Source: an uncultured Verrucomicrobiae bacterium (GTDB lineage Bacteria; Verrucomicrobiota; Verrucomicrobiia; Chthoniobacterales; UBA10450). Taken from it: a DNA stretch of 64,000 nt. The translations under genes and the position numbers were made by a program. Shown piece after piece: positions 4,878 to 32,403 of this stretch. The notes below the pieces were generated by a model that was not told where the DNA came from, searched no databases, and worked only from the letters and a program-made list of their open reading frames with translations. Positions within the stretch are counted from its first letter, which is position 1, and each line of letters starts with the position of its first letter. The DNA lies in the NCBI GenBank assembly GCA_963772365.1, contig CAVYXA010000001.1, positions 864,001-928,000 of the forward strand, read 5' to 3'.

Positions 4878-5890
4878 TCAAAGAAACTCTGGCTGTGCGC
4901 CAGCGGGCGGTTTGAGGCCGAGCTTTTTGTAGGCATTCGCCGTGGCCACCCGTCCTTGCGGCGTGCGCTTGATATAACCTTCCATGATCAGATACGGCTC
5001 GTTCACTTCCTCAAGGGTGCCGGCTTCTTCACCCACCGCCACGGCTAGCGAGCTCAACCCGACCGGGCCGCCGCCGAATTTGTGGATCAATGTTTCGATG
5101 ATCCGTTTGTCCCATTGATCAAATCCGTCGCGGTCGATCTCGAGCATGGCCAATGCGCGATCGGCCAACTCGGCCGTGATTTTTCCATCGGCTTTGACCT
5201 GAACATAATCGCGGACCCAACGCAGAAGATTGTTCGCTGTGCGCGGCGTGCCGCGGGCGCGAGTGGCAATTTCCGCCGCGCCGGCTGCATCAATTTCCAC
5301 TCCGAGCAAATGCGCGCTGCGCAGGATAATTTTTTGCATTTCCTCGGCGTTGTAATAATCGAGGCGAGCTGTCATTCCGAAACGCGATCGTAATGGCGCG
5401 CTGACCATTCCGGCGCGCGTAGTCGCGCCGACCAAAGTGAACTTCGGCAATTGAGACGAAGACTTCGCGCCTGCGGGCCCTGGTCGATGATGATGTCGAG
5501 CCGGTAATCTTCCATCGCCGGATAAAGATATTCCTCGATCGTCGGTTGGAGCCGATGGATTTCGTCGATGAAAAGAACATCGCCTTTTTCCAAACTCGTG
5601 AGCAATCCTGCCAATTCACCGGCCTTTTCGATTACCGGTCCGCTGGTGTTCTTGATGTTCACGCCCATCGCGTTGGCAATGATGTAAGCAAGCGTCGTTT
5701 TTCCCAGACCAGGCGGGCCGCTCAAGAGGACATGCTCAAGAACGTCGCCCCGCCGTTTGGCCGCTTCCACCATCAGTTCGAGCCGCTCGCGCACTTTCAG
5801 CTGGCCAGTGAACTCGCTGAACATTGGCGGCCGCAGCGAGATTTCGAAAGCGGGATCCGTTTCGGGTGGTTTCACAGCCTTTAAACTCAT
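4878..5890 (-). CDS. ruvB: Holliday junction branch migration helicase (frameshift ~5450)
   Basis: [50 protein letters not shown]. Confidence 0.96.
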
Positions 5891-5892
5891 CT

Positions 5893-6297
5893 TATAATCC
5901 AGATTCTTGGTTAGCACGAGCTCCGTCCCGCGCGGCTTCAGAACGTAATCGACTTTATCAAAAGCATTGCGGATCAGATGCAAACCGAGACCACCGGGCT
6001 GATCGCTTCATGGGAGCGGCCGCGCATTTCATGCGCCGCCGTTTGTTCGCCGTAATCGCGAAGGCGCAGACGAATGCATTTGCGCAATGCTTCCATCGAC
6101 AAGGCGATCGGACAATCATCGCGAAATTGATAGGCGTAACGGATAATGTTCGTGCAGGCTTCATCCACGCCGAGCACCATCAGCATTCGCTCCTTTTCGG
6201 AAAAGGGAAAACTATCGAGGAACTTGCGGACGAAATTGCGCATCAGAGCCAGATTGCCAGTGTGACTGCTAAACTCGATCTTCTTTTTCTTCATCAA
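5893..6297 (-). CDS. RsbW-like anti-sigma / HATPase_c ATP-binding protein (frameshifted)
   Basis: [20 protein letters not shown], then [15 protein letters not shown] in the next frame. Confidence 0.8.
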
Positions 6298-17034: not shown

Positions 17035-19070
17035 TCAATGTCCGTTGCGGCTGGCGGGCAGGATGACGTTGACCAGTGTGCCATGCGAGGAAGAATCGAT
17101 TTCGACCCGGCCATGATGATCAAAGACGGTGCGTTTCACGATAGGCAGGCCAAGACCGATGCCACGCGGTTTGGTCGTGCAAAATGGAGAAAAGACTTTC
17201 TCCTTCATTTCCGGCGCGATTCCTCGCCCATTATCACGAACTGTGACCATCACTCCCGTTGCCCGCTTCCCCGCCCGGAGCGATTTGGCTGAAAGCGTGA
17301 TGCGTGGCTTGTTTTTGCCTGATAAAGCCTCAGCCGCGTTAGCGACCAGATGCGCGAATGCTTCGGCCAATGCGGTTTCGTCGCCAAAAACTTTGGGCAG
17401 ATCCTTGGGCAGGGACATTTCCACAAGCAATCCGCCATCGGTGCGAAACTGGTCTTTAGCCATGTTGATCCCTTTCTGCAACGCGCCGCGGACATCGAGC
17501 GGCTTCAACACCAGTTCTGGTGGATGAGCAAAAGTGTTGATCTGAGTAATGATCTTATCGAGGCGATCAATCTCTCTCAGAACGATCTGGTTGAATTCCT
17601 TCCGGAAATCTTTGTCGTCGAAGCGTTCCGGGAGCAATTGAGCAAAGGTCTTGATCGCGACGAGCGGATTGCGAATTTCGTGCGACATACTGGCGGCCAA
17701 ATCGCTCCAGAAGGCAGCGCGCTCGGCCAGCGCTTCCTTGTCCCGGAGTGTTTGCTCGGCAGTGAGATCCTCAATGACTGCGACGGCGCCGAGTAACTTG
17801 CCAGCATCGATAAGTCGCCGCGCCTGTACCGAAATTTTTCGCCGCGTTTGATGGTCCGTCCATTCTTCTATGAGGGGATCCTCTTTCGCATCCAGAGTTT
17901 CGCGCAGCATTCCGGCCAGTCTACTGCCAGCCGCCTCAACTGCGTGATTCAAAACATATTCACTGGAAAAGCCAAGAATCTGTTCTGCGGTCGGATTTAG
18001 CCAGCGAACAATGCCTTCCTGATCGGTTGCGATGATGCCGGGAGGAATGGCCTTGAGCAGGGTTTCAGCGAGAGTCTTCTGCAACGTTGTCTCTTCGTGC
18101 AGAAGCGCGTTCTCCAGCACAGTCGAAACGTGCTCGGCCAGCATCATCACCACTTCCAGATCGCGATCATCGAAACCCTGGCCATTGAAACGCTGGCCGA
18201 AAAACATCCAGCCAAGAATTTCATCGCGCGCAAACAATGGGATGATCGCTTCCGCGCCAAACGAATCCAGCGCTCGCCGCATAAGAGCGCGCTCTTTCTC
18301 CTCCGGTGTCTGAATGAGATTCTCTCGTGAAATGATCAAGGCCCGCCTCTCGAACCAACGCACCAGTGGATCGCGCTCGCCAAATTCCAGCTCGTAGGTT
18401 TCGCGCAGGCAACGCAGACCCGCGCGAAAGCGGTAATTTCCGTCTTGCGCGCTACGGGAAAAAATGCCGACTCGCGTCACCCCTGCGGCATCGGCGAAAC
18501 TTTCCACGACGTTGGCCAAAAGAAGATCGACATTGTCAAACCGGCGAAACACGCGCGGAAAGCGGAGCAAGGAAAACGAAACGCCGCCGCCGGGACGGCT
18601 CGGCGGAGAAACATCGACTGCATTTGCCAGTGCGGGAGACGTTACCTGCCCGCCGTAACTTTGATGAAGTTTCGTCGATCTTTCGCGGAGATCACGATTT
18701 TCCTGCAAGACTTGGAGATGCTCGAAAGCTCTCCGGGCTATTGCCTGGAAACGGCGTCGGTCTACCTCCAACTTTTCCGTTGCATAGATTTCAAGCTGCT
18801 CGGCTTCGCGAAATGGGTCGGACCCCGGAATGCCGAGGGCGATGATTAATACATCGGGCCATTCGCTTTGCACCAACTCGAGAAGATCGCCGCTTCCCGG
18901 GCTCGCAAATCCATGATGAGAATCGCCGAGCCGGCCTGATGAAGCACTGGCTCGAGGCGTTGCGGCTCGGTCACGTGACGGACCTGCGAGAATGATCTCA
19001 GGTAAACTTTGATTCGTCGGCTAAGATCGGGGTCCTGGGTGTACAGAATGGAAGCGTGCGAAGGAGTCAT
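17035..19070 (-). CDS. Cytoplasmic histidine kinase: degenerate REC-like, GAF, PAS, HisKA, HATPase (frameshift ~18880)
   Basis: [28 protein letters not shown]-terminus in ORF 18846-19070. Confidence 0.88.
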
Positions 19071-21577
19071 GCCGCCGCCACCTCTCGGTCGAACCTGACC
19101 AGCGGAAGCATGATATGAAATGCAGTTCCCTTCTGCAGTTCACTTTCAACCTCGATCTGGCCCCCGTGCTCTTGAATGATTCCGTGTACAACGGATAGCC
19201 CTAATCCCGTGCCATAATCTTTTGTTGTGAAAAACGGATCGAAAACGTGAGCGATATCCTCGCTGCGTATTCCTTCCCCGGTATCTCGAATCGTGACACA
19301 AAGCACTTCCGCCGTGTCTCCGTTAGGCGAAGCTGTCCCTGAGCCCCATTGATCGTCTGTGCGAATTTCCGTAGCCACGCTCAGTTCGCCCCCATTTTTC
19401 ATCGCATCCATTGCATTAATAAAAAAATTCAGAAAAACCTGTTCCAGCTGATCCGAGTCGGCCCGTATTGTATCAACATTGGCGTCAAAAAAACGAGATA
19501 ATTTAACCTGCTTCTGCTGGAGCCGGTGATCCACGAGGCGGAGTGATTTCTCCAGAATTTCATGGACGTGCATCGGCTTGAGAACCGGCTTGGCCGGACG
19601 GGCGAACCGAAGCAATTGATTGACCAGACTGTCGATCCGTTCGATCTCATGGCCAATGAGGTTCGAGAACGTTTCCCGAAAATCCGAGTCCTGATAGCGT
19701 TCCGGCAGCAACTGAGCAAAGGTCTTGATGGAAACCAACGGGTTTTTGATTTCGTGCGCCATTCCGGCCGAAAGCGTGCCCAGGCTGGCCAGGCGATCGC
19801 TCCGGCGAATCTGCAATTCCAGCCGTTTAATTGAAGTCACATCCGTAAGCACCAGCAACGCCCCCAACATCTCCTGCTCCTGACCGTGGAAAACGGATGT
19901 GCTGGCTCTCACAACCACAGCCTCATCGTCGAAACGCAAAACGATTTCCCGATCCACCCGGTTCTCGCCTGTGTTCAGGGTTTCACGCAACTGTTCGGCC
20001 AATGACCGGGGGAGATCATCGAGCGACGCATCCACCATTTCATTGGGATCGATTCCGATGATCTGACCCGCTTCGTTGTTGAAAACGGTGATCCGCTCGT
20101 CTGTTCCGACCGCGATTACGCCGCTGGTCAGTTTTTCCAGCAAGGTTTCATTATAAATCTTCGCGTTTTGCACCTCGGTGAAGAGTTCTGCGTTTTCAAT
20201 CGCGACCGCGAGTTGTCCGCATAGAACCTGCAAGGCATTCTGCTCGACAGTTCCATAGATTCGCCCCGAGCGTCGCGCACCAAGCAAAAGGAGCCCGGCC
20301 AGTTGATCGCGAGCATAAATGCCCATGGCCAGCGCGATCTGGAGCGAATCTAACTGTCGCATCACACGGCGAAGCTCCGGCGTCGATCGGATTCGGTGCA
20401 ACTCGTCCAGGACAAGTGGTTCGCGACTTGAAGAAAGCTGCTCAATTGTGGCCTGATCTCGTGTCAGTTCCAATCGATAATGGGAACCAGGATCGACAGC
20501 CGGATACGCCTGGGAAAAGGCATGTTTTTGCGGCAACAAAATAAAGACGCGATCGGTCTCGACTGCTTCGGCCACAGTATTGGCGAATCGATCGAGCAGA
20601 TCGCTTAGAGTAGTGACGGAGCTAAGAATTTTCGCAGCTTTACTGACCGTCGCGCGAAAATCGAGCTGATGAGGCCGAATAAAAAGCCGTTCGGCCAAAC
20701 GTTGCGAGATGCCACGTGCCGGAGCCATCGCAATAGCGACAACGATGGCCGCTGCGACATGCGCGATGGAACGATGATTAGGATTGGAACCAACAACTGT
20801 TGAAACGAGCCACCAAACCACGGCGTAAACGGCGAGAAGATACCCCACGAGCAACCCGTAGGAAATCGAGCGCCGCAAAAGCAACCCCACATCCATGATC
20901 TTCTGCGTGGCAATCCCATAGGCGATTACAAGGCTGAACACTACAATTCGAAACGGAGCCAGCAGAGCCAGCTCCGATCGATCAACGAACAGTCCCAGAG
21001 CAAAAGACAACAGGGTGGTGACGACGGCTACACCAGCTCCAATGAGTATAAACGCAAGCTCGGCGCGCTTACCTGCCGTAACTTTTCTCAAGTCATTCGT
21101 GTAATTGACCATCACTGCGAGTCCGGCGATCCCAAAGTAACCAAAATAAACAATCGATGAGTGCTTGTGATAGATGGGAAGAATGGCTCCGGTGTGCTCG
21201 GAAAAACGCCCGCCTGCCAGAAACCAACTTGTTTGGCAAAATGCAGCCACAGCAGCATAACCAACCCACCAAATCCACGAATTGCGCAGCAGTTGCCACC
21301 AAGACCGCTCGCTGTATTTGATCGAAAGCCTCAGCAGGTTGAAGAGCGGCAGGGTAAGCGCTCCCATTGCCGATGCCTCGCGGATATAAAAGGCGGCAGT
21401 TAGAACGGTCTTGGCATTAAATGTTAGACACAAGCTCCCTAGCCATCCGCCAATAGCCAGAGACAAAAAAAGAAAACACTGATTCGACTTTCGCCTGGGA
21501 TTAGCCTGAAATACGATGGCACCCAGCGCGAGTTGAACGATAATCGCGGTAAGTGTGGGCGTGACGGCGCTGCTCAT
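19067..21577 (-). CDS. Multi-TM sensor histidine kinase with GAF and PAS (PrsK-like architecture)
   Basis: ~8-9 hydrophobic segments, GAF (LLLLGARRSG), PAS, AHEIKNPL, DTGEG, FDPFFTTK, GTGLGL. Confidence 0.92.
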   Translation of the reverse strand: MSSAVTPTLTAIIVQLALGAIVFQANPRRKSNQCFLFLSLAIGGWLGSLCLTFNAKTVLTAAFYIREASAMGALTLPLFNLLRLSIKYSERSWWQLLRNSWIWWVGYAAVAAFCQTSWFLAGGRFSEHTGAILPIYHKHSSIVYFGYFGIAGLAVMVNYTNDLRKVTAGKRAELAFILIGAGVAVVTTLLSFALGLFVDRSELALLAPFRIVVFSLVIAYGIATQKIMDVGLLLRRSISYGLLVGYLLAVYAVVWWLVSTVVGSNPNHRSIAHVAAAIVVAIAMAPARGISQRLAERLFIRPHQLDFRATVSKAAKILSSVTTLSDLLDRFANTVAEAVETDRVFILLPQKHAFSQAYPAVDPGSHYRLELTRDQATIEQLSSSREPLVLDELHRIRSTPELRRVMRQLDSLQIALAMGIYARDQLAGLLLLGARRSGRIYGTVEQNALQVLCGQLAVAIENAELFTEVQNAKIYNETLLEKLTSGVIAVGTDERITVFNNEAGQIIGIDPNEMVDASLDDLPRSLAEQLRETLNTGENRVDREIVLRFDDEAVVVRASTSVFHGQEQEMLGALLVLTDVTSIKRLELQIRRSDRLASLGTLSAGMAHEIKNPLVSIKTFAQLLPERYQDSDFRETFSNLIGHEIERIDSLVNQLLRFARPAKPVLKPMHVHEILEKSLRLVDHRLQQKQVKLSRFFDANVDTIRADSDQLEQVFLNFFINAMDAMKNGGELSVATEIRTDDQWGSGTASPNGDTAEVLCVTIRDTGEGIRSEDIAHVFDPFFTTKDYGTGLGLSVVHGIIQEHGGQIEVESELQKGTAFHIMLPLVRFDREVAAA

Positions 21578-22818
21578 CCAGGTTGAACACGATTTACGAT
21601 CATTGTGCTAGCGGTCCCGCCGAGGCCGCGGACGTTGATTAAAGCCCGGTCGATCTTAGTTTTTCGCGGCCGAAACTGAACAAAATCGAGCTCGAAGCTC
21701 GGGTCCATAACTTCGCAGTTGGCCGTCGGCGGGATAACTTGATCCCGCAGGGTTAACGCACAAGCGGCTACTTGAAATGGGCCAGCAGCAGAGAGGGCAT
21801 TGCCCGTGACGCCTTTGATTGAGCTGACAGCGGTACGATAGACAGACGCTCCAAAAACTTTCTTTAAGAGCTCGACTTCTATTGCATCTAGTTGCGGATG
21901 GCCCGGTCCGTACGCCGAAACGTAGTCGATGTCGGTCGGAAACAACCCACTATTGGCAAGCGCGAGTAGCATTGAATCTTCCAAGCCGGATGCGGGTTTC
22001 GTGGTGTCGCGATCACGGCACTTGCCACAGCCTAGGACTTCTAAATAGATGTTCGCACCACGCGCGACCGCACAATCAAATTCTTCCAGCACGAAAACGG
22101 CAGACCCCTCCGAAATCACACCTGAGTCACGTTCTAGATCGAAAGGTCGGCTTGCCTTTCCCGGTTCGCTGTTCCGATAAGAAGCCAAACCACCTGCAAT
22201 AAAGCTTCCCATGACTAGTGGAGTGATCGGAGCATCCGTACCGCCAGCAATTGCCAATTCCGCGCGACCAGAGCGAATTAAAGCAGCAGCATCAGCCATT
22301 GCATCCAGCCCCGATGTACAAGCGGAAGATACAGTAGCGGCGTTTGCAGAAGCTCCAATTCGATCAGCGATGACATTGGCGGGCGTTGATGGAATTGCCG
22401 CAGCCGAGGTCGTTGTCGCCATCCGATTGGGTCCATGCGCGTTTGTCGATTGATACGCGGTCTCGATTAAGTCCATTGCGTTCATACTCACTCCAATCAC
22501 AATTGGCACCGGGCTTGGCAGCTTAGGCCGAATCGGATCCAGCCCGGCATCTTCCAATGCCATCATGGTTGCCGCGTAGGCCAACTGTGTATGGCGCGCC
22601 ATGCGTTTGGGCTTGAGTTCCGGTTCGATGTAGTCGAGCGGATCGAAATTCTTTACTTCTCCGGCAATGCGGCTTTTGAAATCGCTCGCATCAAACAAGG
22701 TGATTGGTCCGATACCGCTCCGCCCGGCCAAAAGCGATTCCCAAAACGGCTCAATACCGATTCCGTTTGGGGCAACAATACCCATGCCGGTGATAACAAC
22801 TCGATTCTGCCTGGTCAT
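21574..22818 (-). CDS. FabF-fold beta-ketoacyl synthase homolog with atypical active site
   Basis: RVVITGMG, SSACTSG, ASRPFD, SEG; SAYGPGH and KGVTGN replace the His motifs. Confidence 0.9.
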   Translation of the reverse strand: MTRQNRVVITGMGIVAPNGIGIEPFWESLLAGRSGIGPITLFDASDFKSRIAGEVKNFDPLDYIEPELKPKRMARHTQLAYAATMMALEDAGLDPIRPKLPSPVPIVIGVSMNAMDLIETAYQSTNAHGPNRMATTTSAAAIPSTPANVIADRIGASANAATVSSACTSGLDAMADAAALIRSGRAELAIAGGTDAPITPLVMGSFIAGGLASYRNSEPGKASRPFDLERDSGVISEGSAVFVLEEFDCAVARGANIYLEVLGCGKCRDRDTTKPASGLEDSMLLALANSGLFPTDIDYVSAYGPGHPQLDAIEVELLKKVFGASVYRTAVSSIKGVTGNALSAAGPFQVAACALTLRDQVIPPTANCEVMDPSFELDFVQFRPRKTKIDRALINVRGLGGTASTMIVNRVQPG

Positions 22819-23021: not shown

Positions 23022-23142
23022 AATCGCAGCTTGCGCGCCAACCAAAAGCATTTCAACATTGGCCCCAGCTATGGCCCCCCAGCCTTTCCTTACCAGGCGG
23101 CATCGTGATCGAATCCCCAGAGTTTTCATCTATGTCCGTCTG

Positions 23143-23158
23143 CGGCACGCCGTTAGCT
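23143..23158 (+). promoter_or_regulatory. Putative sigma54 promoter
   Basis: CGGCACGCCGTTAGCT (GG-N10-GC), 25 nt before ATG 23183. Confidence 0.55.
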
Positions 23159-23182
23159 TCTACTCCCGTTGCCTACACACAC

Positions 23183-24334
23183 ATGACAGCTACGTCTAAT
23201 CAGCCGGAAATCCTCGTCATCGATGATGAAATAGGCCCGCGCGAAAGCCTTCGGATGTTGCTTAAGCCGGATTACCAAGTCCATACCGCCGATTGCGTGG
23301 AAGCAGGTCTCAAGCTGCTCAAGGAGAAAACGCCCGATACCATTGTGATGGATATCCGGATGCCCGGCATGAGCGGCATCGATGGCCTGCGCAAAATTCG
23401 CGAAATTGATCCCAATCTTTCCGTCATCATGCTAACCGGCTTCGGCGCTCTGGAAACTGCTCGAGAAGCAATCCGGCTCGGCGCAAATGATTACATCAGC
23501 AAGCCGTTTGATGCCACTGAAATGCGAGAAGTCATCGACCGCAACGTCGAGCGGACGCGTCTTCATCGCACCAGTGAACATACTTCCGCCGAGATCAAGG
23601 AACTGAACAATCGCCTGCTCAAGGAACTCGCCCAGAAAGAACGACTCGCCGCCCTGGGCCAGGCTTCGGCCGAATTCGTCCATGATTTGGGTAACCCGCT
23701 AACGATCGTATGGGGTTACGTGCAACTTCTGGCCAAAAAGCTGGAGGGCTCTGATAATGGCCAGGCGCCCGACAAAGCCTTGTCCGTTCGGGAACTGAAC
23801 ATCATCGAAGAAAATGTCCGGCTTTGCCGCGAACTGCTGACCATGTGGCAAAGTTACGGTAGCGTTGACGCCTGTATCCGCAAACCGATTTCCGTATCGG
23901 ACATCGTCCGTGAGATTCTCAAGGGTGTCGGTCAAATGGCAGCCGAGAATGGAATCGAGCTGAAATCGGATGTGTGTGAAGATGCCTGCTCTCTTCTCGG
24001 CGACCCAGTTCAAATCCGGCGCGCCATTCAAAATGTCGTGATCAACGCATTGCAGGCTTCGACGGAGAAAAAGCACCCGGTTTTGGTGACGTGCGTACGG
24101 AAAGATTTTTATGTCGACATCATTGTCGAGGATGGCGGGACCGGAATTGATGCAGCGCACATCGAAAAAATCTTTGATCCATATTTTACCACTAAAAAAG
24201 GCAGGAGCGGAACCGGCCTGGGCCTCTACATCACGAAAAAAGTTGTCGAGGATCACAATGGTTCGATCAAAGTAGATAGCGCCATCGATAAGGGAACGGT
24301 TTTCACGATCCGGCTGCCTCTCACGAACAATTAA
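23183..24334 (+). CDS. REC-histidine kinase hybrid
   Basis: [36 protein letters not shown]. Confidence 0.92.
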
Positions 24335-24448
24335 AGCGTAGGCACGTCGCTCTGCACCGTTCCCGCAGTTTGGGGCCCGCGCCACGACCTGCGGATTGAA
24401 AATCACGTTTCGCTTGTCAGTTCTCGCGCGTTTCGTTTTGCTGAATGC

Positions 24449-26503
24449 GTGGCATCGGCGTACCAAGTCGCACCATTATTCTTAATCCGGATGGCCAGCG
24501 TGCCGTTTGATGCAATTGAACCGCTGTCCACGCCGGAGACGATCAAGATTGCGCGTGAAATAATTGCGGCGCCGAACGATGTAATTGCTTCGGGGCGCCT
24601 GAGTGAAATGGTGGTCCGTGAAGTCGGGTCAGCGCGAGCCTCACTTTGGAACGCCGCTCGGAATTGGCTCGCGCCCTATCTTGTTTTCGCAGGCAGCGGA
24701 GGCGTGCGCGAATTGCTTGCGCTTCTGCTGGGCAAACCAGATGTTGATCTTACGCGACGCAACTCGCGCGCCGGCGATCGCGAACGACATTTGCTCCTAT
24801 TTATTCAAAGGATCACCGCTAAGAACGACACCTTCAGTCGTTTCGGCCCCACTAGCTGGGGCAGAGTCGAACGCGACGAAAACGGAATCACCATCGATGT
24901 CCTACCGGGGATCCGTGCGCAGGAAGCTTTTCTGGAGCGTTGGACAGCTCACGCCGTCGCTGATGTAATCAATTCCGAAATTACCGATGCCAATATTCGA
25001 GTGCCGGCGCTCGAGCCGCATGCTTTCGAAATCTTGTGCGAGGATGTGGAAAAATGGCAAGCCGGCGCAGCTCGCGAAAGGTGGATCTCAATCCTCCGTT
25101 CCATAGCGGCCCTGCCGAAAAAATTCGTGGCCGCAGTGGATACAAGCGATCGACAGTCGATCCTCGATGAGGCTCGGGAACGACTCGGCGCAGTTGGTGC
25201 AGTTCGAACCCGCACCGATCGCTTCCTTTATGCAGCGACTAATCCGATCGGCGAAGAATGTTTTCGCAAAAGCAATTTCTCAATCCCCCAAAGTTCGATC
25301 GACGAACTCGTCGAGGATAGCTCACCATGGATCGATTTGTTCCGTGACACCTATGCATTCGTAGCCAGTCGCGTCGCTGCGACTCTGCGCCAGATCATGG
25401 AAAGAGCGGGCGGGAAAAGCGGCGCTATACCGCTGCCAGTATTCTTAAAGACTTGCGAAGTGGCGAGGCTTCCACTAACCGGCCCGGGTTTGATCGCGCC
25501 CGCAGTTATAGCCTTTCAGGAAGTCAAAGCCGCGTTTGCGGACCGGCTGCGGCGGCATCTCGATCTTAATGAATACGAACTTACGGCGGACGATTGTCAC
25601 GTTGTGCGAAACAATTTTGAATATTCAAAGTTTGATGAATACACCTATCCGTCAGCCGATTTGCAGATCGCAGCGGAGTCCACACAGGCGCTCGCGCGAG
25701 GCGATTATCAATGGCTGCTGGCAGAATTGCATCCAGCGGCGGCGCTGCTTCAACACTGCATGTATTGGGCGTGTCCGGACAAGCCGGTGCTGAATGCCGC
25801 AATCGCTCGTACAACTCTTGGCCGGCCGAATTTTCATTTTGGGTTTTTTGCGGCCGATTTCACGGCGCACACCTGCGTGCACCTTTTCGATGCGCTGCCG
25901 GACTTAACCAGCTTCGTCGCGCCGCAGCGTAGTAATCCTAAATGGCGAACGATTTCTCCCGCCGAAACAGAAGTATATGCCGATCAAAACACAGGGGACG
26001 TTTGTCTCCGTAAGATCGACAGTCGCGAGTATCTCGGGTCATTTGCTCGGGCGTGGGTGATTCCGCTTGGTTTTCATCCCTTCCAATTTGGAATGGCGCC
26101 GCACACGCCACGGCTCCATTGCGGCAAAGTGATTGTCCAACGGCGTACTTGGACAGTTACCATAGAGGAATTTGGCTCCGGAGACTTCAAGGGCGTTTCG
26201 AGCGATCTCGTCCTGGCCGTTGAGAACTTGCGCGCACGGCGCGACTTGCCGCGATACATTTACATTCGTCCAACCGAGCAAGCGCTTCGCCGCAGCGGTG
26301 CGGAAGGGCGCGACAAAGATACCAAGCCGGTTTTTGTCGATCTTGAGAGCTATCTGTTTCTCGAAATTTTTTATCGCTGGTTAATCAAAGCGGGAGAACT
26401 GGAAGTAACCGAGATGTTGCCCGATCCGGATCATTTGCTCTGGAAAGAACCGGATGGCCGCCACACCTTCGAGCTGCGCACGCTCATTGTTCCACGCGAA
26501 TGA
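24449..26503 (+). CDS. Stand-alone lantibiotic dehydratase N-terminal (LanB-N / PEARL-like) protein
   Basis: RITAKNDTFSRFGP, AELHP, HTPRL..GKVIVQRRTW, LPRY, KPVFVDLES, EMLPD, ELR; no elimination domain. Confidence 0.8.
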   Translation: MASAYQVAPLFLIRMASVPFDAIEPLSTPETIKIAREIIAAPNDVIASGRLSEMVVREVGSARASLWNAARNWLAPYLVFAGSGGVRELLALLLGKPDVDLTRRNSRAGDRERHLLLFIQRITAKNDTFSRFGPTSWGRVERDENGITIDVLPGIRAQEAFLERWTAHAVADVINSEITDANIRVPALEPHAFEILCEDVEKWQAGAARERWISILRSIAALPKKFVAAVDTSDRQSILDEARERLGAVGAVRTRTDRFLYAATNPIGEECFRKSNFSIPQSSIDELVEDSSPWIDLFRDTYAFVASRVAATLRQIMERAGGKSGAIPLPVFLKTCEVARLPLTGPGLIAPAVIAFQEVKAAFADRLRRHLDLNEYELTADDCHVVRNNFEYSKFDEYTYPSADLQIAAESTQALARGDYQWLLAELHPAAALLQHCMYWACPDKPVLNAAIARTTLGRPNFHFGFFAADFTAHTCVHLFDALPDLTSFVAPQRSNPKWRTISPAETEVYADQNTGDVCLRKIDSREYLGSFARAWVIPLGFHPFQFGMAPHTPRLHCGKVIVQRRTWTVTIEEFGSGDFKGVSSDLVLAVENLRARRDLPRYIYIRPTEQALRRSGAEGRDKDTKPVFVDLESYLFLEIFYRWLIKAGELEVTEMLPDPDHLLWKEPDGRHTFELRTLIVPRE

Positions 26504-27291
26504 AAATCATTGCCATTGCCAATCAGAAAGGCGGCGTGGGAAAAACCACTACTGCGGTCAACCTCGGTTGCGCCCTAGCGGAAAAAGGGCAGCGCATTTT
26601 GCTTGTCGATTTTGATCCTCAGGCCAACGCCACTAGCTCGTTTGGTTTGCAAAATTTGAATGGATCGAGTCTGTATGAACCGTTACTCGGCGAAGCATCG
26701 ATCATCGACAAGATTGTTCCGACTCGCTGCGAGCGCTTGTTCATAATTCCGGCCGATCTCGACCTGGCCGGCGCCGAATTGGAAGTCGCCAGGATGGAAA
26801 ATCATCTTTCCCGTCTGACGGAAACTCTCCAGCCGCTGCGCGCCGACAATACTTTCGATTTCGTGCTGCTCGATTGTCCGCCGTCTCTCGGCATCTTAAT
26901 GACAAACGCTCTGGCCGCCGCCAATGAGCTTCTGACTCCAATCCAGTGTGAGTATTTCGCTCTGGAAGGCCTGGTGAAAATTGTGCGCGTAGTCGAACAA
27001 ATCCGCGATTCCGGCGCGAATGATCGCCTCGAGATCGGCGGCATTGTCATGACGATGTTCGACAGTCGCACAAATTTGAGCGCCCAAGTTGTAGCGGATG
27101 TGCGCAAACATTTTGGACCGCGCGTTTACGAAACAGTGATCCCCCGCACTGTTCGATTGAGTGAAGCACCAAGCTTCGGCCAATCGATCCTCGAATACGA
27201 TCCGCGCGGACCTGGCGCCAGCGCCTATCGCGCTCTGGCAGAGGAATTCCTGAAGCGACAGTCGATCGTGTTTGCAACCCAGTCTCACTGA
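26500..27291 (+). CDS. parA: ParA/Soj-family ATPase
   Basis: NQKGGVGKTTT, DFDPQAN, DCPPSLG, PIQCEYFALEG, RLSEAPSFG. Confidence 0.93.
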   Translation: MKIIAIANQKGGVGKTTTAVNLGCALAEKGQRILLVDFDPQANATSSFGLQNLNGSSLYEPLLGEASIIDKIVPTRCERLFIIPADLDLAGAELEVARMENHLSRLTETLQPLRADNTFDFVLLDCPPSLGILMTNALAAANELLTPIQCEYFALEGLVKIVRVVEQIRDSGANDRLEIGGIVMTMFDSRTNLSAQVVADVRKHFGPRVYETVIPRTVRLSEAPSFGQSILEYDPRGPGASAYRALAEEFLKRQSIVFATQSH

Positions 27292-27304
27292 TACCCTTTG
27301 ATCG

Positions 27305-28423
27305 ATGCCGAAAACGAAGACAAAAGCGGCCAGTAAAAATATTCATGCCGTCCTCGGCTCCGATGAAGCTGAGGTCAAACGTGTGGCGACGGAGTTGTCC
27401 GAAAAGCTGACGCCGCCGGGCGCGGGCGACTTCGGATTGGAAATTATCGACGGCGCGGTCGAGAGCGCCGATCAGGCGGCGGCTCGAATCGGATCGACAA
27501 TTGAAGCATTGCGAACGTTACCTTTCCTCGGTGGCGGAAAATTGGTTTGGCTGAAGAACGCGAATTTTCTTGGCGATTCGCCTGCGAGTCGGGCTGCCGC
27601 TGTTCAGGAACGTCTCGATGAGTTGGGCGCGCTGATCGAAAGCGACCTTGGCCCCGACGTCACGTTCCTGATCAGTGCCGTTGATGTAGATAAACGCCGA
27701 TCTTTTTACAAACTGCTTTCCAAACGCGCCGAACTGCAGGTCTTCGACAGGCTCGATTCATCGCGAACCGGCTGGGAAGAGGAAGCAATGGAACTCGTTC
27801 GGAACCATGCCAGGAAAAAGAAACTTCAATTCGACGATGATGCGCTTGAGTTGTTCGTCCTGCTCACCGGAGGCGATACCCGCCAGATCGAAAATGAATT
27901 GGACAAGATCGACATCTTTCTCGGCAAAGAGCGCAACATCAGCGCGAACCAAGTGCGCGAACTCGTGCCGCTTTCCCGGGCAGGAGTGATTTTTGAACTG
28001 GGAAATGCGCTGGCCGAGCGCGATCTGAAACGAGCGCTCACACTGGTGCGGCGACTTCTCGACCAGGGCGAGAGCGCCATCGGCATCTTGCTGGTTGCGG
28101 TTGTGCCGACCATCCGAAATTTGCTGCTGGCGAAAGATTTGATGGAGCGGCATCGATTACCGCGGCCGCATGTTCCATTTCAGTTCATCTCCGCGATCAA
28201 TCGGCTCCCCGCCAACGCTACAGAACATCTGCCGCGCAAGAAGGATGGCGCGATCAGCGGTTATGCACTGGGGATTGCCGCTCAGCATGCTGACCGATTC
28301 CAAACCGCGCAGTTGATCGAAGGCATGCGAGCGTGTCTGGAAGCGAATCTCCAGCTGGTTACAACCCAGCTCGATCACGAGCTGATCTTGACGGAGACCG
28401 TGGTGAAGTTACTGGGGCACTGA
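27305..28423 (+). CDS. holA: DNA polymerase III delta subunit
   Basis: TLPFLGGGKLV, DKRRSFYK, GGDTRQIENELDK, IFELGNAL. Confidence 0.85.
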   Translation: MPKTKTKAASKNIHAVLGSDEAEVKRVATELSEKLTPPGAGDFGLEIIDGAVESADQAAARIGSTIEALRTLPFLGGGKLVWLKNANFLGDSPASRAAAVQERLDELGALIESDLGPDVTFLISAVDVDKRRSFYKLLSKRAELQVFDRLDSSRTGWEEEAMELVRNHARKKKLQFDDDALELFVLLTGGDTRQIENELDKIDIFLGKERNISANQVRELVPLSRAGVIFELGNALAERDLKRALTLVRRLLDQGESAIGILLVAVVPTIRNLLLAKDLMERHRLPRPHVPFQFISAINRLPANATEHLPRKKDGAISGYALGIAAQHADRFQTAQLIEGMRACLEANLQLVTTQLDHELILTETVVKLLGH

Positions 28424-30107: not shown

Positions 30108-30220
30108 AAAGCAATGCGAGGACGCATCGCACTCCTAAAGCTTCGCAAAAACATGGCGCGCATTTCTCCATTTTCGCACGCAGTACTTTCGGAGTGCGTT
30201 ACGCGTCGCCGCGTCGCTTT
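30108..30220. repeat. REP-like paired palindrome (family shared with 55868-55966)
   Basis: aaagcaatgcgaggacgcatcgcactcctaaag ... ctttcggagtgcgttacgcgtcgccgcgtcgcttt. Confidence 0.65.
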
Positions 30221-31548
30221 CACTTGCGCGCGTTGCGATAGTAGTTGGTCAGTCCTTCGACAACTCCATCCGCATATTCGCGGAAAATGCTTTTGCGCTC
30301 GCGGCCGTTGATATTTTCTGTGCCTTTATAATCGCCGGCCTGGATCCGAGCAAACGCGTCGCGGCTGTTCATTACGTAGGGCTCGCAGTAAACGACCGGG
30401 CAACGATAAATTCGCGTTGCCAGCAAATTCCGCGCATAGACGTAACCTGTCGATCCTACTTTCGTCGTCACGAGCGTGGTTGGATATTGATAGGGTGGCA
30501 ATTGAGTCTCCTCCGCCATGGCGGCGGCAACGGAATCCGCCAGCGGCAGCTCTTCATCATAAACGCGGCTGAGCAGACGGCGGATCATTTCAAAGCGCTC
30601 GTCATCGAGTTCGAGTTCCTCAGGCAAATACGAACCATTCACCAGCAAATGCAGATGGTTGGTGTCGGTTAAGATCGGATGTTTCGGATCGCCCCATCCT
30701 TCGGCATTGAAGTGCAAACAGAGCACGAGATCCGGATGCAATTTCGTGTTAACAAAAACTGCCCGGCGGCGGATCTCGCTGTAGCGATAAAATAAAATCT
30801 CGCTCTGCCATTTTATCGTTTTCTCTTTTTCGGGGTCGTTCGGGTCGAGCACATCCTCGCGTGGTCGCGGCACTCCGTTCTTGATCAAAATTTTCCTGGC
30901 CAGCTCTTTGAAATCGTCGGGCCGTTTCACGGTGATCGGTTCGGTGCTTTTTCGAACAAAGGAGACGCTTGCGCCCAGTTTGCCCAATTGCGGAGCAAGC
31001 AACCGCGCCACGCGCAAAGTCAAATCGCCTTCGGTCACGGGCTCGCTTTCGCCGACTCGGAACCAGCGCTCCTCCATTTTCGCCCAACTTCCGCCGAGAT
31101 GGCCGGGATCGAGCGCAATTCGCAAGCCATCGAGCGGTTTGTCATCGGTCGGAGGCGGCAAAGCCGCGGCCGGATGCCAAAGCCGTGGCACATGCTCGCG
31201 GGAAGCGTTATCAGCGGCAAATCGCAGTGTGAAATAATTGTGTGACGCGCGATCCTTTAGAATCTGCACGGAATCGTTGTCGATCTTGAGGAGATCATCG
31301 GCAAAGCCGTGCGTGCAATAAACATCGCGAAGCAAATGTTCGAATTCATCGTGCGTAATCGTTTGCTGATAATGCTCGAGAACATGCCAGCGCGGTTTGC
31401 TGCCAAGAATGCTGACGGTTCCAGCTGCATGAAGAGTTATCGGCAGGATCGACAACAGAAAAAATGACGAGACGCGAATGGCGAAGGACGAACGAGAACG
31501 CGGAGTTCCTTGGAATTCATCATTCATTACTAATTCGACATTCGTCAT
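30220..31548 (-). CDS. N-acetylmuramoyl-L-alanine amidase-like (Amidase_3) exported protein; start uncertain
   Basis: IALDPGHLGG, TEGDL, LCLHFNA, VYCEP Zn-amidase pattern; upstream part of the track ORF overlaps ymdB antisense. Confidence 0.7.
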   Translation of the reverse strand: MTNVELVMNDEFQGTPRSRSSFAIRVSSFFLLSILPITLHAAGTVSILGSKPRWHVLEHYQQTITHDEFEHLLRDVYCTHGFADDLLKIDNDSVQILKDRASHNYFTLRFAADNASREHVPRLWHPAAALPPPTDDKPLDGLRIALDPGHLGGSWAKMEERWFRVGESEPVTEGDLTLRVARLLAPQLGKLGASVSFVRKSTEPITVKRPDDFKELARKILIKNGVPRPREDVLDPNDPEKEKTIKWQSEILFYRYSEIRRRAVFVNTKLHPDLVLCLHFNAEGWGDPKHPILTDTNHLHLLVNGSYLPEELELDDERFEMIRRLLSRVYDEELPLADSVAAAMAEETQLPPYQYPTTLVTTKVGSTGYVYARNLLATRIYRCPVVYCEPYVMNSRDAFARIQAGDYKGTENINGRERKSIFREYADGVVEGLTNYYRNARK

Positions 31549-31584
31549 TGGGATTTCGTCGTTTTTCAAATACGATCCTGTTCG

Positions 31585-32403
31585 ATGTTGAGGATACTTT
31601 TTCTCGGTGACGTGGTGGGCCAGCCGGGGCGAAATGCGATTATCACGCGCTTGCCTGAATTGAAGGAACAGCTCTCGCTCGATTTCATCGTCGTGAATGG
31701 CGAGAACGCAGCGGGCGGGCGCGGGATCACCGGAAAAATTACCATCGAGCTCCTGCGTGCCGGTGTATCGGTCATTACCACCGGCGATCATATCTGGGAC
31801 CAAAAGGACATTCAGAGCTTTATCGATACGGAACCGCGCTTGCTGCGGCCGGTAAATTATCCGGTTGGCGCGCCGGGGAACGGATCGATCGTGTTGGAAA
31901 CATCCAAGGGGAAAGTCGGCGTGATCAATGTGCAGGCGCGAACGTTTATGCAACCGATCCTGGAAAATCCATTTCACGCTGTCGAAGCAGCTGTGGCCAA
32001 GGTGCACGAGGAGACCGTTAACATCGTTGTCGATGTTCACGGCGAAACGACGAGCGAGAAGATTGCGTTGGGCCGATTTCTGGATGGAAAGGTCTCGGCC
32101 GTAATCGGCACTCACACGCACGTGCAAACCGCTGACGAACAAATTTTCCCCGGCGGCACCGCTTTTCTTTGTGATGCCGGCATGTGTGGGCCGGTAAATT
32201 CCATTCTTGGTCGGACAATCGAGCCGATCATGAGCCGGTTTGTATCAAATCTGCCGATCGCGTTTCCGATTGCTCCGGGCGAAGTTCGATTGCGCGGTGC
32301 ATTGATCGACATCGACGAAGAGACTGGCCGCGCCTTGCGCATCATCCGCGTAGATGAACCGGGGACGACGACCGCAGAAAAATCCTCCGATCAACCGTCT
32401 TAA
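31585..32403 (+). CDS. ymdB: YmdB/TIGR00282 metallophosphoesterase
   Basis: GDVVG, NGEN, TGDH, HGETTSEK, GTHTHVQT. Confidence 0.92.
   Translation: MLRILFLGDVVGQPGRNAIITRLPELKEQLSLDFIVVNGENAAGGRGITGKITIELLRAGVSVITTGDHIWDQKDIQSFIDTEPRLLRPVNYPVGAPGNGSIVLETSKGKVGVINVQARTFMQPILENPFHAVEAAVAKVHEETVNIVVDVHGETTSEKIALGRFLDGKVSAVIGTHTHVQTADEQIFPGGTAFLCDAGMCGPVNSILGRTIEPIMSRFVSNLPIAFPIAPGEVRLRGALIDIDEETGRALRIIRVDEPGTTTAEKSSDQPS

Follow-up and report, generated by a model that had tools for sequence, protein, structure and literature searches.

Identification of the ligase

Which substrate is served by a stand-alone PEARL-type ligase that lies directly ahead of parA? The question arose from a stretch of 64,000 nucleotides of an uncultured Verrucomicrobiae bacterium (contig CAVYXA010000001.1, positions 864,001 to 928,000), here called the window. 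The gene (24449..26503, plus strand) starts with GTG and codes for a protein of 684 amino acids with a LanB glutamylation-like fold and without an elimination domain. A comparison with solved structures, proposed in an initial annotation of this DNA, returned LanB glutamylation domains as the closest matches; no PEARL was among the matches, thus LanBs came out on top by default. The PEARL set of ATP-site residues is present (D404, E426, H428, E675 and R677). D404 and R677 correspond to Asp542 and Arg803 of TglB, E426-x-H428 to its Glu564-x-His motif, which begins 22 residues past the aspartate in both proteins, and E675 in E675-x-R677 occupies the position of Glu801. R565 and Y605 are equivalent to Arg743 and Phe783 of TbtB, 40 residues apart in either sequence, R121 to the tRNA 3'-end residue Arg208 of BhaB, and R14 to the active-site arginine Arg10 of TglB. 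The correspondences to TglB and BhaB were established by motif and spacing to the published numbering rather than by a direct alignment to TglB; only the TbtB positions derive from an alignment, with an assumed tag offset of three residues. The accessible part of PMC11962472 describes the tRNA-end and active-site arginines of PEARLs, and according to the accessible part of PMC11117183, Asp542 and Arg803 of TglB are kept in PEARLs only, split LanBs having Tyr and Leu in their places.

Eight positions (D404, E426, R121, K125, T128, R565, E675, R677) were invariant in all 71 ligase orthologs, so that each carries Asp and Arg at the two discriminating positions and none the Tyr/Leu pair. R14 was kept in the 69 orthologs having that N-terminal end. 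Position 118, the place of BhaB Tyr205, is Tyr in 61 and Phe in 10 of the 71 sequences, the window protein being among the latter. Overall, 113 of 684 columns were invariant at an average identity of about 60 %. The initial annotation had proposed a compact, tRNA-dependent ligase, a reading that depended on intact ATP- and tRNA-binding residues; these are intact in the window protein and its orthologs, and the fold and the PEARL-only residues support the proposal. The unchanged catalytic positions and invariant columns favour a working enzyme. Judged from fold and residues, the ligase is very probably active: ATP would phosphorylate a carboxylate, to which the amino acid carried by an aminoacyl-tRNA would then be joined by condensation.

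Short forms by module loss

Compared with an ortholog of 808 amino acids that served as reference, the window ligase lacks residues 46-102 and 237-303. The first missing segment (near residue 45 of the window protein) corresponds to the tip of a helical hairpin at the N-terminus, a coiled coil. The second (near residue 178) we take to be an RRE from its position and a CDG motif, a putative label; an Atlas search with this RRE-like segment returned PF04738 clusters only, at 0.85. Both segments are present in 34 of the 71 orthologs; the first alone is missing from 14, the second alone from 7 and the pair from 16, so that 23 are without the RRE-like segment. A tree of the core requires six changes for the first segment, leaving aside two of the 14 sequences that are cut N-terminally, and seven for the second; the breakpoints differ. 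Full-length orthologs measure about 800-820 amino acids. Distant relatives of about 800 amino acids carry both segments in their consensus, hence the short forms are losses. All deletions leave the frame open and spare the catalytic residues. The loss of the RRE-like segment fits the lack of a leader peptide. However, an RRE is reported in the accessible part of PMC11962472 as probably dispensable for BhaB and TglB on peptide substrates, so its loss leaves a peptide substrate possible; for the tip of the helix bundle, a model in the same text suggested a possible contact to the anticodon. Forms of 660-690 amino acids are natural minimal PEARLs without RRE-like segment and helix-bundle tip. A comparison of full and short orthologs would directly test whether the lost parts matter, and the short forms offer a small scaffold for C-terminal labelling.

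The ligase is a variant of the PEARL kind and not an ordinary member; the observation of the initial annotation is confirmed. With the scaffold-peptide PEARLs TglB, BhaB-Trp and AmmB it shares the LanB-N fold without elimination domain, the ATP-site Asp, Glu-x-His and Glu-x-Arg, the tRNA 3'-end Arg and, in its full-length orthologs, the size. It differs from them by the lack of precursor and tailoring genes, by its vertical retention, as a single-copy gene, within one family, by the missing RRE-like segment and coiled-coil tip in the window protein, by Phe at the Tyr205 position and by other residues at the Arg197 and Gln201 positions. The split LanBs TbtB and GodF and the full LanBs NisB, MibB and MadB have Tyr/Leu in place of Asp/Arg, as far as the accessible part of PMC11117183 describes them. 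These enzymes act on a Ser/Thr peptide and depend on an elimination domain. The nearest solved structures and the repeated deletion of two modules could be taken for a split-LanB glutamylation subunit with a distant elimination partner, or for a decaying relic. Either is very improbable, considering the PEARL residues at both discriminating positions, the default ranking of LanBs, the missing match to PF14028 (in a weakly controlled search) and the open frames and spared catalytic residues.

Search for peptide partners

As the initial annotation had stated, precursor, cyclase and elimination genes are missing beside the ligase. Inspection by eye of 65 gaps upstream and 69 gaps downstream of the ligase revealed no precursor peptide gene, nor did a survey of the gene families adjoining the ligase in 80 loci, which covered ORFs of at least 60 amino acids. 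The upstream gap, mostly 50-250 bp, contains the promoter. Tailoring, protease or export genes, as they accompany a pearlin in RiPP clusters, were not found beside the ligase, and MNIO and YcaO genes were not found. The elimination domain PF14028 had no match in the neighbourhood, and a genome-wide search that ran without a positive control was equally blank. The genome-wide search for a precursor suggested earlier yielded three small acidic ORFs with hydrophobic ends, none of them precursor-like. Nearly all genomes have a single ligase copy; one family genome (G005) has two ligase and two ketosynthase copies on contigs C52 and C2, a duplication or a binning artefact.

That the ligase performs ordinary pearlin chemistry on a small precursor peptide whose gene lies at another place in the genome is unlikely. 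A scaffold peptide is the substrate of most PEARLs characterised, the genome sequence reaches 90 % completeness, and small ORFs are readily overlooked; an RRE is probably not needed for this chemistry (accessible part of PMC11962472). These points are opposed by the lack, by eye, of a shared small ORF upstream of the ligase or between ligase and parA, by the three unconvincing acidic ORFs, by the missing MNIO and YcaO genes and by the single copy in nearly all genomes, as opposed to multi-PEARL clusters.

The kinase and ketosynthase block

A fixed block upstream of the ligase had escaped the initial annotation. The gene order in 80 loci is second kinase, membrane kinase and ketosynthase on the minus strand, followed by hybrid kinase, ligase and parA on the plus strand. 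The hybrid receiver-histidine kinase (23105..24334, plus strand) was present in 77 of 80 loci, in one of them behind an insert of 1.9 kb. The FabF-like ketosynthase (21574..22818, minus strand), present in 66 of 80 loci, keeps the catalytic Cys (60/60), while the first His is changed to Tyr in 58 of 60 and the second to Asn in all 60 sequences; it lacks the Cys-His-His triad of an elongating FabF. A ketosynthase with Cys and without the decarboxylating histidines suits acyl transfer or binding over elongation. The membrane sensor kinase (19067..21577, minus strand), found in 64 of 80 loci, consists of a hydrophobic N-terminal region without a Pfam match, GAF, PAS, HisKA and HATPase domains. 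The second kinase (17035..19070, minus strand) has a degenerate receiver-like start, GAF, PAS and histidine kinase domains and is a single ORF of 666 amino acids in relatives such as L264 and L265; in the window it is frameshifted near codon 66-74 into ORFs of 74 and 613 amino acids. Since other genes of the genome are also split, namely ruvB (4878-5983) and parB on contig C3, the frameshift is likely an assembly error. Loci without parA or ketosynthase had short flanks, locus L053 excepted.

Ligase and ketosynthase co-occurred in 65 of 81 family genomes, 10 had neither, six the ligase only and none the ketosynthase only. Of the six ligase-only genomes, four were opened; in G012 and G527 the ketosynthase at the locus is broken, by error or decay, and in the other two the contig ends there. 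The 10 genomes with neither gene form genus g10, which is nested within the family on the ParA tree (support 94). Here the ligase (0/10), the ketosynthase (0/10), the hybrid kinase ortholog (0/10, best match 31 %) and the membrane-kinase N-terminus (0/5) are absent, but parA is retained (5/5). Everything between lpxD and parA was lost, and an enoyl-CoA hydratase gene now occupies this place (4/4 loci). The joint loss of ligase and sensor-kinase genes with retention of parA favours a role in signalling over one in DNA replication. However, the co-loss is a single contiguous deletion in a single genus and would also remove unrelated neighbours; an aldolase gene has gone from the same spot.

In other Verrucomicrobiota the block occurs without the ligase: the ketosynthase was present in 10 of 11 loci opened, the ligase in none, and profile searches for the ligase in these bacteria were blank. 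The block predates the ligase and occurs elsewhere in its absence, as a module that has no need of it. Other enzymes adjoin the ligase-free blocks: a PaaK-like CoA ligase or an FAD oxidase, or else a B12 radical SAM enzyme together with a FadL porin. In family f19, a streptomycin-adenylyltransferase-like protein lies beside the block in five of six loci (L223, L224, L260, L262, L263), assigned by a Pfam match in three and by sequence similarity in two. From these few loci we read the block as a putative signalling core that is conserved and to which each lineage adds accessory enzymes of its own, in this family the ligase.

The main alternative substrate is the membrane kinase itself, whose conserved C-terminal tail ends in -VAAA (19067-19102) and may be modified by the ligase. 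The tail reaches beyond the kinase fold, and its last two residues are AA in 61 of 66 family loci; four synonymous codons at position -2 indicate selection as protein, and the tails of ParA and of the two other kinases are variable, unlike that of the membrane kinase. The tmRNA tag of the genome ends in LALAA, and an AA end may be read as a ClpX degron. PEARLs are able to modify whole proteins with a short C-terminal tag (accessible part of PMC11962472), and the membrane kinase was lost alongside the ligase in g10. We still regard this substrate as rather unlikely: VAA ends in two ligase-free lineages (L219, L221) imply that the tail can be older than the ligase, positions -5/-4 agree with a ribosome site of the overlapping next gene, AA ends are not rare in the genome (22 of 1363 long ORFs), and BhaB-Trp rejected a PAAAA end according to the accessible part of PMC11962472.

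Linkage to parA and transcription

The Soj-type parA (26500..27291, plus strand) overlaps the stop codon of the ligase and is the only full-length ParA gene of the genome; it is unlinked from parB, located on another contig. The linkage to the ligase noted earlier proved to be conserved, with parA downstream in 73 of 80 loci and contig ends cutting the other seven. An ATGA overlap was present in 42 of 69 scored junctions, and three more, mis-parsed, also overlap. Five junctions (L057, L084, L092, L104, L110) have short palindromic inserts in the first parA codons, by which the start of parA is duplicated and an ATG is gained. The holA gene (27305..28423, plus strand; TIGR01128) adjoins parA only in the window genome and was found in 0 of 80 loci by both neighbour checks, so it does not belong to the conserved unit; the initial annotation had placed it in an operon headed by the ligase. 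About 3 kb past parA the window has an amidase gene and ymdB (30220-32403).

In all 22 genomes examined from other families, the ParA ortholog occurs without the ligase; neither ligase nor parB lies within 1.5 kb of it, and several orthologs follow an amidase gene. In 23 of 23 Verrucomicrobiota loci (L232-L254), parB is absent within 1.5 kb of the ParA ortholog. The solitary ParA ortholog of other families suggests that the ligase was inserted ahead of a resident parA. Together with the unlinked holA and the ligase-free ParA of g10, this leaves the replication or housekeeping setting proposed initially without support.

A promoter-like element, TTGTCA and TTTGCT separated by 17 bp (24414..24442, plus strand), starts 35 nt and ends 6 nt ahead of the GTG. 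Counted from the start codon, 56 of 62 scorable loci have TTG at -35/-34 and 52 of 52 have T at -7; a Shine-Dalgarno-like motif was found upstream of the ligase in just one of 56. The window element was the top match of a genome-wide scan with a matrix built without the window. The spacing points to a leaderless transcript, and with the near absence of a ribosome site, ligase and parA are probably transcribed as a leaderless unit of their own.

The coupling could alternatively reflect an action of the ligase on or with ParA, tying chromosome segregation to tRNA charging. The downstream position in 73 of 80 loci, the ATGA overlap, the shared promoter and the relocation of the ligase-parA pair as a unit away from the block in L053 agree with such a role. 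We consider it improbable: g10 and the 22 genomes from other families have the ParA ortholog without the ligase, the C-termini of ParA differ in length and sequence, holA is unlinked, and insertion before a resident gene accounts for the coupling.

Distribution and origin

The ligase was present in 31 of 36 genomes of the host family versus 0 of 24 from other families of the order, a set that includes the unpublished genomes G003, G008 and G014. Among 81 better genomes of the family, G008 included, 71 have it, and all 10 misses are g10. The conclusions hold irrespective of the unpublished genomes. The ligase clade of the family nests among proteins of 35-47 % identity, of which two of 10 looked up are labelled Kofleriaceae. 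Read from unrooted relationships, it is probable that the ancestor of the family acquired the ligase once, from a biosynthetic clade of myxobacteria-like type. Four outside relatives could be viewed in context, three beside acyl-activating genes and one without a biosynthetic neighbour: the first runs into an NRPS adenylation domain, the second faces a GH3 ligase, and the third belongs to a cluster of two PEARLs that also has MNIO, ACP, AMP-binding and FabH-like genes.

Further PEARL-like or biosynthetic loci were encountered. A metagenome cluster (L122:1-11400) comprises two PEARL-like genes, an MNIO pair, ACP, PEP-mutase/ICL family, AMP-binding, FabH-like, RidA, methyltransferase and MATE genes; a precursor was not seen. 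A distant, broken PEARL-like gene of another Verrucomicrobiota family (L115, G315:C34:739-4938) is surrounded by methyltransferase-like, glycosyltransferase-like and deacetylase-like ORFs, named by eye. A small NRPS cluster with a P450-like gene, also named by eye (G000:C1:998700-1008500, L230:2712-12541), has close orthologs in seven of 41 family genomes. A literature search, with most subscription journals outside its scope, found no paper on the ligase locus.

Proposed role

Precursor-free PEARLs have been published, SnaE (PMC11212132) and SinB1/B2 (bioRxiv 10.64898/2026.05.21.726688), and render PEARL chemistry on small molecules plausible. As described there, they resemble the ligase as stand-alone PEARLs with a proposed small-molecule acceptor and without lanthipeptide precursor or elimination domain; compared by description, they belong to NRPS/PKS or nucleoside clusters with known products, whereas the ligase neighbours one atypical ketosynthase, three kinases and parA. 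The acyl-activating genes beside three of the four outside relatives support a small-molecule substrate. In loci of N-acyl amino acid synthases and sensor kinases, an enzyme that forms amides is encoded next to regulators and a membrane sensor kinase, a layout similar to the present locus with a different enzyme family. None of the N-acyl amino acid synthase or PEP-CTERM equivalogs passed the cut-off at the ligase locus.

Our best reading, with a rough probability of 40 %, is that the partner of the ligase is the adjacent ketosynthase/sensor-kinase block, and not ParA or the replisome, and that an N-acyl amino acid-type signal is made. The ligase would have been acquired once by the family ancestor and inserted with its own promoter ahead of the resident parA. 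The histidine-less ketosynthase may handle an acyl carboxylate; the ligase would form an acyl-phosphate on a small carboxylate and transfer the amino acid from tRNA, and the product, an N-acyl amino acid-type small molecule, may be read or controlled by the membrane kinase. Against this reading, a ketosynthase gives thioesters but a PEARL requires a free carboxylate, neither ACP nor thioesterase was found in the block, the ligase points away from the ketosynthase under its own promoter, the block manages without the ligase in other Verrucomicrobiota, and in L053 ligase and parA are separated from the block.

The PEARLs of the literature come from clusters for natural products. In this soil family of the Chthoniobacterales, a PEARL with an intact active site belongs to the near-core genes. 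Comparative metabolomics could make use of genus g10 as a natural deletion. Tied to a signalling block, the PEARL may make a signal molecule or modify a cellular protein.
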